From the IMG/VR virus record IMGVR_UViG_2703718843_000007: a DNA stretch of 19,983 nucleotides. One strand, written 5' to 3'. The position numbers and the translations under genes are program-made. The notes below the pieces were generated by a model, which ran no database searches, had not been told where the DNA came from, and was given only the letters and a program-made list of their open reading frames with translations. Every line of letters begins with the position of its first letter. Within the stretch, counting starts at the first letter, position 1. Shown here in pieces: positions 4,094 to 15,920 of the stretch. The DNA is from a virus. Lineage: Duplodnaviria > Heunggongvirae > Uroviricota > Caudoviricetes.

Positions 4094-4288
4094 ATGTCAA
4101 CGAAGAACAGAACCCGCAGAACAACAACCCGCAACATCCGCTTTCCTAACCAAATGATTGAACAAATTAACATCGCTCTTGAGCAAAAAGGGTCCGGGAA
4201 TTTCTCAGCCTGGGTCATTGAAGCCTGCCGTCGGAGACTAACGTCAGAAAAGAGAGCATATACATCAATTAAAAGTGATGAAGAATGA
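4094..4288 (+). CDS. ylcI: YlcI-like small protein (DUF3950)
   Basis: 64 aa MSTKNRTRRTTTRNIRFPNQMIEQINIALEQKGSGNFSAWVIEACRRRL...; same position as in the DLP12 and lambda right end. Confidence 0.8.
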   Translation: MSTKNRTRRTTTRNIRFPNQMIEQINIALEQKGSGNFSAWVIEACRRRLTSEKRAYTSIKSDEE

Positions 4289-4452
4289 ACATCCCGCGTT
4301 CTTCCCTCCGAACAGGACGATATTGTAAATTCACTTAATTACGAGGGCATTGCAGTAATTGAGTTGCAGTTTTACCACTTTCCTGACAGTGACAGACTGC
4401 GTGTTGGCTCTGTCACAGGCTAAATAGTTTGAATGATTAGCAGTTATGGTGA

Positions 4453-4659
4453 TCAGTCAACCACCAGGGAATAATCCTTCATATTATTATCGTGCTTCAC
4501 CAACGCTGCCTCAATTGCTCTGAATGCTTCCAGAGACACCTTATGTTCTATACATGCAATTACAACATCAGGGTAACTCATAGAAATGGTGCTATTAAGC
4601 ATATTTTTTACACGAATCAGATCCACGGAGGGATCATCAGCAGATTGTTCTTTATTCAT
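4453..4659 (-). CDS. ybcW: YbcW-like small protein
   Basis: 68 aa [68 protein letters not shown]; GGAGCG RBS before ATG at 4659. Confidence 0.8.
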
Positions 4660-4944
4660 TTTGTCGCTCCATGCGCTTGCTCTTCATCTAGCGGTTAAAA
4701 TATTACTTCAAATCTTTCTGTATGAAGATTTGAGCACGTTGGCCTTACATACATCTGTCGGTTGTATTTCCCTCCAGAATGCCAGCAGGACCGCACTTTG
4801 TTACGCAACCAATACTATTAAGTGAAAACATTCCTAATATTTGACATAAATCATCAACAAAACACAAAGAGGTCAGACCAGATTGAAACGATAAAAACGA
4901 TAATGCAAACTACGCGCCCTCGTATCACATGGAAGGTTTTACCA

Positions 4945-10418: not shown

Positions 10419-10873
10419 TACGCCTCCTGTTTGTCGCGGAGCTGCTGGAACTCGCAGCTCTGCGGAATAGTCAGGTGGCAGCCAATATTCACCGCCCAGG
10501 CTTCAACCTTACACAGGAAGATATACATCTCTCCGGTATCAAGATCGGAGGTATGGCGTAACGACTGGATAGTAGTGATTTCGCCGGTTACGACATCAAC
10601 CAGGTCCTTGGTTTCATAACCGAGGTATGTGTGTTTGAGAGCATCTTTTACCCATGCTGCGGTAGCGAACGATTTCCCCCTGCTGATGAGGTATTCACTG
10701 ATTTCGCTGTACCACATGTGGCTGAGTGCATTCTGGGAAAGACTGCGTTTCTCACGCCACGGTTTAAGCACCATGCGAAAGCATTTTCCGTCCTCCAGAT
10801 AAGGCTGGATCTGCTGGCCGATAGCGGTGAAGTTACCGCGATGCAGTTTGATGCCATCTTGTGGTAGGTTCAC
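10418..10873 (-). CDS. ybcN: YbcN-like protein (DUF1367)
   Basis: 151 aa; GTG start at 10873 preceded by GGAGG; [50 protein letters not shown]... Confidence 0.85.
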
Positions 10874-11063
10874 GCTTCACCTCCGCAGAGGTCAGACGCT
10901 GGATGCAAAAAATCGCAGGTGCATTTCTGCATCTGTGAAGGGAGAAGAGAGTTTGGATTGTATGTGCGCATAAACGTCCCCGTTTAGCGCAGAAGTCACC
11001 GGAGTTGTTCAAGCTCCGATGACTTTATTATTACGAATTGATTTTACAAAATCAAAAGGTATG

Positions 11064-11516
11064 TTAGTGACGCGGGTCTGTTATTATGCGAGAAGGGGTT
11101 CCGTATAAAACAAGGACCTTACTTCCTTGAGTAAATAACGGATCTTTGCCTTGAACAATGGTCATTAAATTCCCATTCTCAGTTTCGACAACATATTCCA
11201 TGCCTGTTTGTTTTGTTGCTGAAGATTCGATTGCTGCCCCGGCAATACCACCAATGACTGCACCACCAACGGCACCAACGATATTAGAACGAACTCCCCC
11301 ACCAAGCGCAGAACCAGCGGTTGCCCCCACGGCAGCCCCAGCAGTCCCGCCTAACGCGGAAGTCCCACTGATATCAACCCCCCTAGCACTAATAACTGTA
11401 CCAGCGATAGTTCGATTAACCATGCCCACAGAGCCAACAGAATAACTATTTGGCGATATATTTTGTGCGCATCCAACCAACACTAAGAGTGGAGCAATTA
11501 CGAATAATCGCTTCAT
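11064..11516 (-). CDS. Lipoprotein with glycine-zipper segment (SlyB/Pcp/17-kDa-antigen-like architecture), function unknown
   Basis: 150 aa MKRLFVIAPLLVLVGCAQ... (lipobox LVGC), Gly/Ala-rich zipper GGTAGAAVGATAGSALGGGVRSNIVGAVGGAVIGGIAGAAI, then C-terminal beta-rich segment. Start overlaps the stop of the upstream lipoprotein gene (ATGA). Confidence 0.8.
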   Translation of the reverse strand: MKRLFVIAPLLVLVGCAQNISPNSYSVGSVGMVNRTIAGTVISARGVDISGTSALGGTAGAAVGATAGSALGGGVRSNIVGAVGGAVIGGIAGAAIESSATKQTGMEYVVETENGNLMTIVQGKDPLFTQGSKVLVLYGTPSRIITDPRH

Positions 11517-12073
11517 TTAGCTACCCTAACAGGAAACATTGGACGAGAAAGATCAACACTTTCTAATGCTTGCAAGAACTGCGTTATGTTGTTTTGCACC
11601 GCGCGATTAACAGATTCGCGTGCTCGAACAATACCGTAGAATGCGTAACTGGCTGGAACAGTACCGGTAGACTCAATATCCTGCGTATATATAATATCAC
11701 CATTCGCACGGTTGATTATTTCATACCTTGCAATTGCTTTAGTTGTCATTGAAACACCAAAAGCAGGAACGTCAAGAGCCAACACTTTAACATTTAAGCT
11801 AACCGTATTTGGTGAACTATCACGAAAAATAGTCATTCGGTCGAGTGCTTCCTGCAAAGATTCACGCCAAATTGGAGTTATAGCCTCCATACCAGCAGTG
11901 ATATCCCCTTTCTGCTCATCTGGACGAGCAAGTGATACCGTTAATGACTTAATTTCAGCATCTATTTTTTTCTGGCTAACTCCCACGTTAGGTGTTGAAA
12001 AATTCAATGGTGGCACACTAGCGCAACCTGTTAAAGAACCAATAATCATGGCTAATAATATTATCTTCTTCAT
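11513..12073 (-). CDS. Lipoprotein, function unknown; first gene of a two-gene lipoprotein operon
   Basis: 186 aa MKKIILLAMIIGSLTGCAS... (lipobox LTGC); AAGGT RBS 8 nt upstream of ATG 12073. AT-richer than the flanking phage genes. No family recognised by eye. Confidence 0.8.
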   Translation of the reverse strand: MKKIILLAMIIGSLTGCASVPPLNFSTPNVGVSQKKIDAEIKSLTVSLARPDEQKGDITAGMEAITPIWRESLQEALDRMTIFRDSSPNTVSLNVKVLALDVPAFGVSMTTKAIARYEIINRANGDIIYTQDIESTGTVPASYAFYGIVRARESVNRAVQNNITQFLQALESVDLSRPMFPVRVAK

Positions 12074-12329
12074 AAATTTACCTTATTGTTATAACCAAAG
12101 GAATTATAAAGTAAAAAAGTTCACTATCACTAGCCATTAACGACATCAATTTCAGAGAAACATGGTACTCATTTCCACAAATTTGACACAAGTCATTTTC
12201 ACCTACATATTCCATCATACTTGATGCATATGTTATTGAAGCCTCTATCCTATCCGTTCATAATAGCAATAGTTACCCGGGTGATAGTACCTCTATGATT
12301 ACTCGTCTTTCTGATTGATTGGATTAAAT

Positions 12330-12521
12330 ATGCGCGCCAAAATTTATCAACTTTCGTTATGGATATTTATTTCGTTTCTAGCGATCTATGCCTTTATTAT
12401 CTATAAAGGTTCTTATATTGGAGTAGCATTGCATCAAATTGCTTGGATCATCATTATTGCCTCTGGCTTGATTGCTAGGCTAACTAAACCAAAGCAAAAA
12501 CCAATTTCGTCCAATAATTAG
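12330..12521 (+). CDS. Small predicted two-helix membrane protein, divergent from the lipoprotein operon; hypothetical
   Basis: 63 aa from ATG 12330: MRAKIYQLSLWIFISFLAIYAFIIYKGSYIGVALHQIAWIIIIASGLIARLTKPKQKPISSNN. Two hydrophobic stretches, basic C-terminus; weak RBS. The ORF track starts at a TTG at 12315. Confidence 0.4.
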   Translation: MRAKIYQLSLWIFISFLAIYAFIIYKGSYIGVALHQIAWIIIIASGLIARLTKPKQKPISSNN

Positions 12522-12680
12522 ACATGTATTAAAAAAATGATATTTTTATGTACATAGTCTATTGAAAATTGCCGCGATAAAATGCCAACACCCGCTTCAT
12601 CGCGGCACTCTGGCGACACTCCTTGAAAATCAGATTCGTGCTCACCTTTCCTTCCCGTTCTTCCCTGGTAGCGAACCGGT

Positions 12681-13127
12681 AATCATCCGATCTGCGTTAC
12701 CGAGTGGATGGATGAATGCCGCCGCGAACCATTCAAAACCCGCGAAGGCAGAGAAATTACGGGGCCGTGGCAGTCGCATCCCAAACGGATGTTACGGCAT
12801 AAAGCCATGATTCAGTGTGCCCGTCTGGCCTTCGGATTTGCTGGTATCTATGACAAGGATGAAGCCGAGCGCATTGTCGAAAATACCGCATACACCGCAG
12901 AACGTCAGCCGGAACGCGACATTACTCCGGTTAACGATGAAACCATGCAGGAGATTAACACTCTGCTGATTGCCCTGGACAAAACATGGGATGACGACTT
13001 ATTGCCGCTCTGTTCCCAGATATTTCGCCGCGACATTCGCGCATCGTCAGAACTGACACAGGCCGAAGCAGTGAAAGCTCTTGGATTCCTGAAACAGAAA
13101 GCCACTGAGCAGAAGGTGGCAGCATGA
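12681..13127 (+). pseudogene. bet: bet (Red-beta single-strand annealing protein), C-terminal ~149 codons only; N-terminal ~110 codons replaced by unrelated DNA
   Basis: In-frame translation from ~12681 reads NHPICVTEWMDECRREPFKTREGREITGPWQSHPKRMLRHKAMIQCARLAFGFAGIYDK...[17 protein letters not shown], matching lambda Bet C-terminus as recalled. Upstream in-frame stop at 12669-12671; stop overlaps exo start (ATGA). Confidence 0.85.
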
Positions 13128-13804
13128 CACCGGACATTATCCTGCAGCGTACCGGGATCGACGTGAGAGCTGTCGAACAGGGGGATGATGCATGGCACAA
13201 ATTACGGCTCGGCGTCATCACCGCTTCAGAAGTTCACAACGTGATAGCCAAGCCCCGCTCAGGAAAGAAGTGGCCTGACATGAAAATGTCCTACTTCCAC
13301 ACCCTGCTGGCTGAGGTTTGCACCGGTGTGGCTCCGGAAGTTAATGCTAAGGCGCTGGCATGGGGAAAACAGTACGAGAACGACGCCAGAACCCTGTTTG
13401 AATTCACTTCCGGCGTGAATGTTACTGAATCCCCGATCATCTATCGCGACGAAAGTATGCGCACCGCCTGCTCTCCCGATGGTTTATGCAGTGACGGCAA
13501 TGGCCTTGAGCTGAAATGCCCGTTTACCTCCCGGGATTTCATGAAGTTCCGGCTCGGTGGTTTCGAGGCCATAAAGTCGGCTTACATGGCCCAGGTGCAG
13601 TACAGCATGTGGGTGACACGAAAAGATGCCTGGTACTTTGCCAACTATGACCCGCGTATGAAGCGTGAAGGACTGCATTATGTCGTGGTTGAGCGGGATG
13701 AAAAGTACATGGCGAGTTTTGACGAGATGGTGCCGGTGTTCATCGAAAAAATGGACGAGGCACTGGCTGAAATTGGTTTTGTATTTGGGGAGCAATGGCG
13801 ATGA
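13124..13804 (+). CDS. exo: Lambda exonuclease (Red-alpha)
   Basis: 226 aa [68 protein letters not shown]...GFVFGEQWR; near-identical to lambda Exo as recalled. Confidence 0.95.
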
Positions 13805-15305: not shown

Positions 15306-15920
15306 ATGAAAAAATCAATACTAATTTTAGGGCTTACGTTAATTGTCTCATCTCAAATACCATCGGCAATGGCAAAAAATGAATCAAGACTTTGGGTTGT
15401 TGTTGATCGAACGGAAAGACATACCTGCCCTTCAAGTAAATGTGGAGTGGCTGGGAAACTATTTTTCAGGGAAGGCGTAGATTTTCTAGAAAAAAAAGGT
15501 GAATGGGTTCGTATAACTGAGCCATATTCAGCCTCATGTGTGGGAGGGGAAAGCGAATATATTAAAGAAGGTAATAAATCCTGCACAAGAAAAAACGGAA
15601 TCGTCAATGGCAAGTTTTCAGAATGGGTTAAACTTAGTGATCTTAGCAGTGAAAGGCCATCAGATCCTGCTGAAAATGCGAGCGGAGATGATACTTTAAT
15701 CAAAGGATCTGATGACTACCGTATATACAAAAAAGAGTTTTCTTCGGCAGCTAGGAAGTTAATAAACGAAGGGGTCTGCACGGAAAGCGACTTTAAGGAA
15801 ATCGGAGGGTGGATGGCATCAAGCAATAAGGGTAAAAACATCTATTTCACATATTGCGGAGGAATGACGTTGTCGAACAGAATATACCTAGACGTTAAAA
15901 GTGGAAAGACTTTTAGATAA
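15306..15920 (+). CDS. Secreted/periplasmic cysteine-containing protein of unknown function (moron inserted into the ea22 region)
   Basis: 204 aa; AAGGA RBS 7 nt upstream; Sec-type signal peptide MKKSILILGLTLIVSSQIPSAMA with AxA cleavage motif; 6 Cys in mature part; AT-rich; followed by a terminator. Confidence 0.8.
   Translation: MKKSILILGLTLIVSSQIPSAMAKNESRLWVVVDRTERHTCPSSKCGVAGKLFFREGVDFLEKKGEWVRITEPYSASCVGGESEYIKEGNKSCTRKNGIVNGKFSEWVKLSDLSSERPSDPAENASGDDTLIKGSDDYRIYKKEFSSAARKLINEGVCTESDFKEIGGWMASSNKGKNIYFTYCGGMTLSNRIYLDVKSGKTFR

Follow-up and report, generated by a model that had tools for sequence, protein, structure and literature searches.

Lambda-like prophages are full of morons, accessory genes such as bor of lambda, which is encoded against the late operon, and gp15 of HK97, an inner-membrane exclusion moron. 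T4 Imm and P22 SieA are small inner-membrane proteins that act in superinfection exclusion, and the class II holin (pinholin) S21 of phage 21, about 70 residues long, has two transmembrane domains. DicB is a small prophage protein that inhibits inner-membrane proteins used by phages (PMC6832061, PMC10883804). Here we describe a 63-codon gene at positions 12330–12521 (+ strand) of IMG/VR virus record IMGVR_UViG_2703718843_000007, a stretch of 19,983 nucleotides (the window), whose product is predicted to be a small membrane protein with two helices. The window is Escherichia coli chromosomal DNA with a decayed prophage, lambda-like and of the DLP12 type, beside ybhC. Comparison of homologous loci indicates that the open reading frame (ORF) is almost certainly a genuine gene under purifying selection, and that it very probably stands as an antisense module of its own rather than as a partner to the lipoprotein genes from which it diverges.

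The ORF listing, its translation and the homologues place the gene between an ATG at 12330 and a TAG at 12519–12521. The product (MRAK…SSNN; full sequence MRAKIYQLSLWIFISFLAIYAFIIYKGSYIGVALHQIAWIIIIASGLIARLTKPKQKPISSNN) has hydrophobic stretches at about residues 5–25 and 27–50 on the Kyte-Doolittle scale, and AlphaFold2 run on the family alignment gave a helical hairpin with helices at residues 3–26 and 30–52 followed by a disordered tail (predicted local distance difference test score, pLDDT, 71). The C-terminal tail, RLTKPKQKPISSNN, holds four basic residues and no acidic ones. This charge distribution (N-terminal MRAK, a K/R-rich C-tail and a loop of 3–5 residues) predicts that both ends of the protein are cytoplasmic. 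A first-pass annotation of this DNA had described a 63-codon ORF with two hydrophobic stretches and a basic tail, a description with which translation, hydropathy and structure prediction all agree, and had left its coding status uncertain. That doubt is now settled in favor of a gene by homologues of 33–52% identity that share its start and length and are under purifying selection.

A word-indexed protein search returned near-identical E. coli copies only; the family emerged with an exhaustive HMMER search, which found three homologues of 60, 75 and 63 residues (50, 49 and 37% identity; E 2e-14 to 6e-6). A profile search gave 17 proteins, about 12 of them distinct; with scans of the loci added, the family comes to about a dozen distinct proteins, 33–52% identical, from Klebsiella pneumoniae, Klebsiella sp., Citrobacter braakii, Pseudocitrobacter faecalis, P. 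vendiensis and metagenomic viral contigs. As far as it has been sampled, the family is limited to lambda-like prophages of Enterobacteriaceae and the chromosomal copy in Pseudocitrobacter. Its members are 57–63 residues long except for P0127 (predicted 75 residues), in which the Met aligned with the start of the other members is internal and preceded by 15 additional N-terminal residues. The start reads M-R-A-K throughout (MQAK in P0127). M1, K4, Y29, G31, V32 and L34 are invariant and Q36 and G46 nearly so; conservation is seen in the motif Y29-x-G31-V32-x-L34-(H/N)35-Q36 at the loop and start of helix 2, in a small S/T-G pair within helix 2 and in the basic tail.

The ratio of nonsynonymous to synonymous substitution rates (dN/dS), calculated by the Nei-Gojobori method for the unsaturated family pairs (dS 0.37–0.93), ranges from 0.07 to 0.19; between individual loci, designated by L numbers, it is 0.11 (L011–L045), 0.19 (L016–L017), 0.12 (L040–L043), 0.08 (L040–L046) and 0.09 (L043–L046). 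When the window is compared with the homologous loci, as DNA or in translation, similarity extends only over 12326–12503, starting 4 nt before the ATG and ending within the ORF, and neither the spacer nor the DNA beyond the ORF could be aligned with those loci. Similarity confined to the ORF, low dN/dS and a shared start and length together argue for a translated gene that starts at ATG 12330. A start at an upstream TTG (12315) was considered and dropped, since the ATG is fixed by the point at which similarity to the homologous loci begins.

These comparisons leave it scarcely credible that the ORF is an untranslated by-product of T-rich, AT-rich DNA, in a stretch that serves as non-coding spacer or as an RNA element. 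Such a reading can point to the length of the ORF, which by itself is not beyond chance (at least 68 residues in 7% and at least 63 residues in 11% of shuffles of a 487-bp segment of low guanine-plus-cytosine (GC) content), and to its composition, a GC of 0.34 that is flat across codon positions (0.33, 0.37 and 0.33) with T enriched at position 2. It can point as well to a weak Shine-Dalgarno sequence and to the Prokaryotic Genome Annotation Pipeline (PGAP), which leaves the ORF unannotated. By-product DNA would not be expected to have homologues at 33–52% identity that keep start, length and motif, nor dN/dS of 0.07–0.19 at dS 0.4–0.9, nor similarity that ends at the ORF borders, and a search of 10800–12900 against Rfam at E ≤ 1 found no RNA family. 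Variation within E. coli was set aside as a test of selection, being uninformative among copies that are at least 99% identical.

The spacer and ORF occur once per genome in 280 of 5,426 complete E. coli genomes (∼5%), always at 99% identity or higher. The exact protein is encoded on at least 1,000 contigs, where GenBank submitters name it 'hypothetical', and the window ORF is present in one of 50,697 phage records. Absence or frame disruption of the ORF in otherwise identical modules, which the first-pass annotation had named as refuting its reading, was not found in E. coli, where four of four aligned copies of spacer plus ORF are intact. An apparent frameshift in many E. coli copies with a 486-bp match proved to be a 1-bp indel in the A-run at 12531–12537, past the stop codon. 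One strain differs from the window by five substitutions, four in the spacer and one in the ORF (Ala3Thr). The ORF is kept in the window's decayed prophage despite the loss of the early rightward promoter P_R, cro, O and P, and in strain 203740 it is kept although IS3 has destroyed the lipoprotein gene. RefSeq locus tags skip a number at the small ORF (RS17095 to RS17105 in NZ_CP031653; RS13435 to RS13425 in NZ_CP025913), so a gene call may once have been made there and later dropped, with the numbering as the sole basis for this.

The small gene was examined in seven phage backbones (L011, L045, L043, L042/L044, L046, L040 and phage PhiR30_1), and in each it is the sole gene facing against the early-right operon, placed between the replication genes (O/P, or DnaB/DnaC with accessory genes) and a nin module (DUF1367, NinB, NinE, NinG, RusA, Q). 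All that different backbones have in common here is a block of 342–404 bp, made up of the ORF with about 100 nt before it and about 60 nt after it, a mosaic unit in its own right. The divergent neighbor varies: it is a gene resembling HolE (theta) in L011, L045 and L046, a 100-residue unknown gene in L042–L044, and the lipoprotein pair in E. coli only.

This distribution bears directly on the pairing proposed by the first-pass annotation, in which the small membrane protein works together with the divergent lipoprotein operon as a regulator, immunity factor or toxin, and two inverted 8-mers and a TGAC-N4-GTCA element are regulator sites acting in both directions. What speaks for the proposal is that in PhiR30_1 and in every one of the 280 E. 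coli copies the two units diverge from a 256-bp spacer, that each 8-mer lies in or beside a promoter-like element of one unit, and that one 8-mer recurs in the window more often than expected. However, the E. coli copies are at least 99% identical and therefore represent one inheritance event, not a repeated association. Among eight lipoprotein-pair loci fetched, the small ORF is absent from all five that are not from E. coli. In Klebsiella oxytoca, Edaphovirga and Bordetella the DNA becomes homologous to the window precisely at the start codon of the lipoprotein gene, and the upstream regions in these three contexts are unrelated, with neither a homologue of the small ORF nor any similar hydrophobic ORF. 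Conversely, the examined loci of the small-gene family outside E. coli (six phage backbones plus Pseudocitrobacter) never adjoin these lipoproteins. The co-occurrence check that the first-pass annotation had proposed thus fails in both directions. A functional partnership is very improbable, and the comparative data have already largely refuted it.

The lipoprotein pair is, from its distribution across genomes, a separate two-gene cassette that moves horizontally. Its first gene (11513–12073, − strand) encodes a 186-residue lipoprotein and its second (11064–11516, − strand) a 150-residue glycine-zipper lipoprotein; the 150-residue gene overlaps the 186-residue gene by 4 bp (ATGA), and the two are always found together. 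Homologues of the pair at 59–87% identity occur in Klebsiella oxytoca (83%), Edaphovirga, Bordetella, Xanthomonas, Lysobacter, Stenotrophomonas and Luteimonas. The 186-residue protein, best treated as the product of an independent cargo gene, is called 'YajG family' by PGAP and is often mislabelled 'UDP-N-acetylglucosamine acyltransferase', a name for which profile scans of the pair gave no support. The YajG identity was rejected as well: the match to NCBIfam PRK11627 (E 0.17, 11 bits against a cut-off of 242) covers the signal peptide only, and the protein has no Pfam domain. AlphaFold2 (pLDDT 85) gave an outer-membrane-lipoprotein fold of the LptE/PelC/CsgG/DUF330 type. The 150-residue protein matches Rick_17kDa_Anti and Gly-zipper profiles below threshold. 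The two proteins belong to phrog_12521 and phrog_13877, respectively, both of unknown function in PHROGs.

The spacer between the two units (12074–12329) is 256 bp long, exactly as the first-pass annotation had it given a lipoprotein start at 12073 on the minus strand, with a GC of about 0.33–0.34, and it bears no relation to the DNA that lies upstream of homologues of either gene. A 46-residue minus-strand ORF within it (12078–12218) was treated as spurious, with no similarity in any fetched locus. Both 8-mers are present close to where they had been placed (near 12122 and 12275): ACTATCAC at 12123–12130 and GTGATAGT at 12281–12288, both given on the plus strand. The TGAC-N4-GTCA element also exists, as TGACACAAGTCA, though at 12184–12195 (+ strand), some 20 bp from the position of about 12205 first given for it. 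On the minus strand the left 8-mer reads GTGATAGT, and its GTGATA forms the −35-like hexamer of a candidate sigma-70 promoter for the lipoprotein operon (12103–12130, − strand; GTGATA-16-TATAAT, 10/12), a consensus match and the best site on that strand; a Shine-Dalgarno sequence, AAGG, lies 7 nt before the lipoprotein ATG at 12073. The right 8-mer lies directly upstream of a TATGAT −10-like hexamer of the small gene. The TGAC-N4-GTCA element overlaps a perfect TTGACA −35-like hexamer (12183–12188), part of a promoter-like site at 12183–12211 (TTGACA-17-CATATT, 10/12).

The first-pass annotation had itself cautioned that such 8-mers can arise by chance. An exact inverted 8-mer pair is found in 52% of dinucleotide shuffles of the spacer (mean 1.0), and the spacing of about 150 bp between the arms is unlike that of an operator. 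The spacer has four palindromes of the 4-N4-4 form where 1.4 are expected (p about 0.05); when all gaps from 0 to 10 are admitted, the count is 14 for an expected 15.7, no excess. The 8-mer ACTATCAC or its complement occurs four times in the window against 0.53 expected, a number reached in none of 200 shuffles, although this count is post hoc. The four occurrences are at 1381, 11816, 12123 and 12281, three of them within 11816–12288 and one inside the lipoprotein gene. Since they stand at chance level, overlap promoter-like hexamers and lie in a spacer with no counterpart at homologous loci, the 8-mers and the TGAC-N4-GTCA element do not hold up as regulator sites. They are best read as parts of, or chance matches within, the AT-rich promoter regions of the two divergent units, where they coincide with promoter-like hexamers, and not as operators.

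In a near-identical annotated record, the prophage runs from tail and packaging remnants through ylcI, ybcW, ybcV, bor, rzpD, rrrD and essD to an ompC-like porin gene, quuD, ylcG, rusA, ybcO, ninE and ybcN (ninB), followed by two 'hypothetical' lipoprotein genes and then by a ren remnant fused to a RecT/bet remnant, genes of the exo-xis region, xis, int and ybhC. The small ORF and its spacer lie in a low-GC island between ren and ninB (GC 0.33–0.34 versus 0.51–0.53 in the phage flanks). Phage PhiR30_1 (PV340558), which is intact, has the same island; its genes run cro, cII, O, P, ren, the small ORF on the opposite strand, lipoprotein 1, lipoprotein 2, ninB … Q, and the module thus belongs to the early-right operon of a functional phage. 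In the window, a ren 3' remnant (12559–12681, − strand) marks the position of the module downstream of ren in that operon; the gene is complete in intact relatives. A deletion or inversion has removed the whole region for immunity and replication (cI, cro, cII, O, P) from the window prophage, and ren, P and O still adjoin the same island in other E. coli strains. The ren fragment is joined head-on to a C-terminal bet/RecT fragment (12682–13127, + strand), which is followed by a full-length exo (13124–13804). On the exo-xis side lies a further low-GC accessory gene (15306–15920, + strand; GC 0.37–0.41), whose product, annotated as hypothetical, is a predicted lipoprotein of 204 residues with a weak SH3_3 match. 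The prophage small RNA svsR, which sits at the 3' end of cI, was considered and dropped as unrelated.

Several observations concern the neighbors of the gene outside E. coli. The theta (HolE, DNA polymerase III)-like gene, the commonest divergent neighbor, encodes 82–85 residues at about 4672–4935 in L011, L045 and L046. Only its first codons are left in L040 and L043 (about 4900–4937), joined to the upstream block of the small gene, and the ancestral unit may have been the theta-like gene diverging from the small gene. About 300 bp from the small gene in L040, a metagenomic lambda-like contig, a gene at 4148–4693 (− strand) encodes a 181-residue protein with an Ala/Gly-rich membrane helix at the N-terminus and a transmembrane segment at the C-terminus; it has no PHROGs or PADLOC match and could be a further membrane-acting cargo at the same hotspot. 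The Pseudocitrobacter copies are chromosomal (L016 and L017, 4136–6852), beside pspF/pspA, and are flanked by a divergent gene for a lambda-type Ser/Thr phosphatase and a co-directional gene for a 497-residue membrane GGDEF protein. This locus may be a domesticated remnant of a nin region.

What the product does can be approached from the orientation of its gene. Because it faces against P_R, the gene cannot be expressed from the lytic operon and needs a promoter of its own. We lean slightly toward the view that it is a moron, an autonomous accessory gene of the prophage that is active in the lysogen and whose product works at the inner membrane. Facing against the lytic operon, it would be transcribed in the repressed prophage from its own promoter, probably the one marked by TATGAT (12294–12299, + strand), a candidate −10 hexamer and consensus match 30 nt upstream of the ATG. 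After induction, converging N-antiterminated transcription from P_R would silence it. The protein would insert in the inner membrane and benefit the lysogen by acting on a membrane process, and the best guess at this process would be exclusion of superinfecting phage at the stage of DNA entry, or the inhibition or modulation of an inner-membrane host protein. Expression in the lysogen is rather probable, while a specific role in exclusion or in modulating a membrane protein is put forward tentatively and is, on balance, doubtful. TATAAT, TATCAT or TATACT lies 29–33 nt upstream of the ATG in homologues; −10-like hexamers at this distance are present in the window and in L011, L045, L016, L017, L040 and L043, accompanied by poor −35 elements.

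The stop codon of the small gene is followed by an AT-rich imperfect hairpin of 43 nt (12519–12561; TAGACATGTATTAAAAA…TTTTTATGTACATAGTCTA) that fills the gap to the converging ren remnant. It folds at −10.7 and −11.3 kcal/mol (z −1.7 and −2.3), and its A-run at 12531–12537 is A7 or A6 among E. coli strains. Most family members have a hairpin after the stop codon, GC-rich in the homologues. The U-tract is on the small gene's own strand in L011 and L045 and on the opposite strand in L040 and L046, where the hairpin would terminate the incoming early operon. The lambda terminator tR2, which is located in this region of lambda, would be the counterpart of such a hairpin.

A number of points weigh against an autonomous, lysogen-expressed membrane effector. 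The candidate promoters are consensus matches, and promoter-like sites in 10800–12800 number six against 4.3 ± 2.0 expected, which is chance density. The window hairpin has no canonical U-tract and is not a canonical intrinsic terminator, and a terminator belonging to the small gene itself is not uniformly found across the family. The Shine-Dalgarno sequence is weak, GGA only at −10 to −8, as the first-pass annotation had recognized; it is weak throughout the family, and as a family trait it does not count against translation. The family is small, with about 12 distinct members known, and RefSeq/PGAP leaves the ORF unannotated in five of five records inspected. Profile and fold searches gave no homology to any exclusion, holin, toxin or defense family, so the assignment of function has orientation, position and architecture as its whole basis. 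Searches of Pfam, NCBIfam, PHROGs and PADLOC with the small protein returned no match apart from phrog_17225 at E 0.096. A PDB sequence profile search gave only compositional matches to PsbI transmembrane helices (E ≥ 0.1), Foldseek against viral structures (BFVD) gave nothing at E < 4, and we found nothing on this protein family in the published literature.

The same architecture could instead belong to a membrane-damaging toxin (type I toxin, holin-like or abortive-infection), silenced by weak translation or by an antisense RNA, that would kill or depolarize the cell upon phage attack or prophage loss. In favor of this, class II holins and small hydrophobic toxins are built in the same way, with two transmembrane helices, both ends predicted inside and a basic C-tail; the ribosome-binding site is a weak one throughout the family; antisense transcription of the early operon runs over the whole gene; and in L040 the neighboring gene encodes another unknown membrane-anchored protein. 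We nevertheless consider a toxin unlikely. The protein matches neither the Hok, Ldr, TisB, Ibs and GhoT toxins nor holin families nor any PADLOC model; the gene lies outside the lysis cassette of a prophage that has its own essD, rrrD and rzpD; and the dual-start motif is absent. The ORF is also intact in the window prophage, from which the stretch with P_R, cro, O and P that would supply the antisense RNA is missing, and in lysogens, where P_R is off. Intact copies that lack the P_R region or the lipoprotein gene indicate that the product is tolerated without antisense control, which speaks against a potent toxin of the type I kind and suits a function in the lysogen that is benign or beneficial.

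Beyond the accessory-gene reading that we prefer, the family might represent an unrecognized class of lysogeny-specific inner-membrane effectors of enterobacterial lambda-like prophages, a proposal that we regard as quite improbable. Were it so, the fixed backward placement of the gene at the replication/nin junction, just beyond the terminator of the early operon, would serve as a built-in switch, on while P_R is repressed and off upon induction. The effector would provide a new form of lysogen protection, such as blocked genome entry of superinfecting phages, or, alternatively, would use the conserved Y-x-G-V-x-L-(H/N)-Q face of helix 2 to modulate some membrane machine of the host.

Comparison thus shows that a short ORF missing from the annotation of the inspected RefSeq records is a real gene under purifying selection, present in about 5% of complete E. 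coli genomes and in prophages of Klebsiella and Citrobacter. Its evolutionary identity is that of an autonomous, antisense-oriented cargo at the replication/nin junction. This sets right the functional pairing with the lipoproteins, which was plausible but mistaken, and defines a candidate for screens of prophage small membrane proteins for phage exclusion or modulation of membrane proteins.

Set beside the described systems, the small protein resembles class II holins in its size (60–70 residues), two transmembrane helices, predicted N-in/C-in topology and basic C-tail. It has no match to the Phage_holin Pfam family or to a PHROG lysis family, and its gene differs in lying in the early region and not upstream of an endolysin, in its orientation against phage operons and in its single Met start. 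With the type I and type V toxins (Hok/Gef, Ldr, TisB, GhoT) it shares a short hydrophobic peptide, weak translation signals and a potentially covering antisense transcript, but it has two helices and not one (GhoT excepted). No type I toxin family (Hok, Ldr, TisB, Ibs, Sho and others) was matched in Pfam, NCBIfam or PADLOC at E ≤ 1, and no dedicated antisense RNA gene was identified, with no Rfam family in 10800–12900. T4 Imm, P22 SieA and DicB exemplify the role that we consider likeliest for the protein, by analogy and not by any match of sequence, profile or fold; DicB, unlike the predicted small protein, is not itself a membrane protein. Nor does the small protein resemble any named moron product (Bor, Cor, the gp15/YebO type or others) in sequence or profile. 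The closest likeness is in the kind of unit. Morons such as lambda bor and HK97 gp15 are, as here, small accessory units of low GC between conserved phage modules with an envelope product, and bor in the window prophage is, like the small gene, encoded against its neighbors. Patchy presence among related phages, mosaic junctions and deviant base composition, all typical of morons, are found for the small gene, and the sequences are suggestive of a promoter of its own and, in some homologues only, of a terminator of its own. The gene is therefore ordinary in kind, departing in nothing from known phage genome logic, although its antisense placement is unusually rigid, and it is best filed as an unnamed family of the moron-like kind already known.

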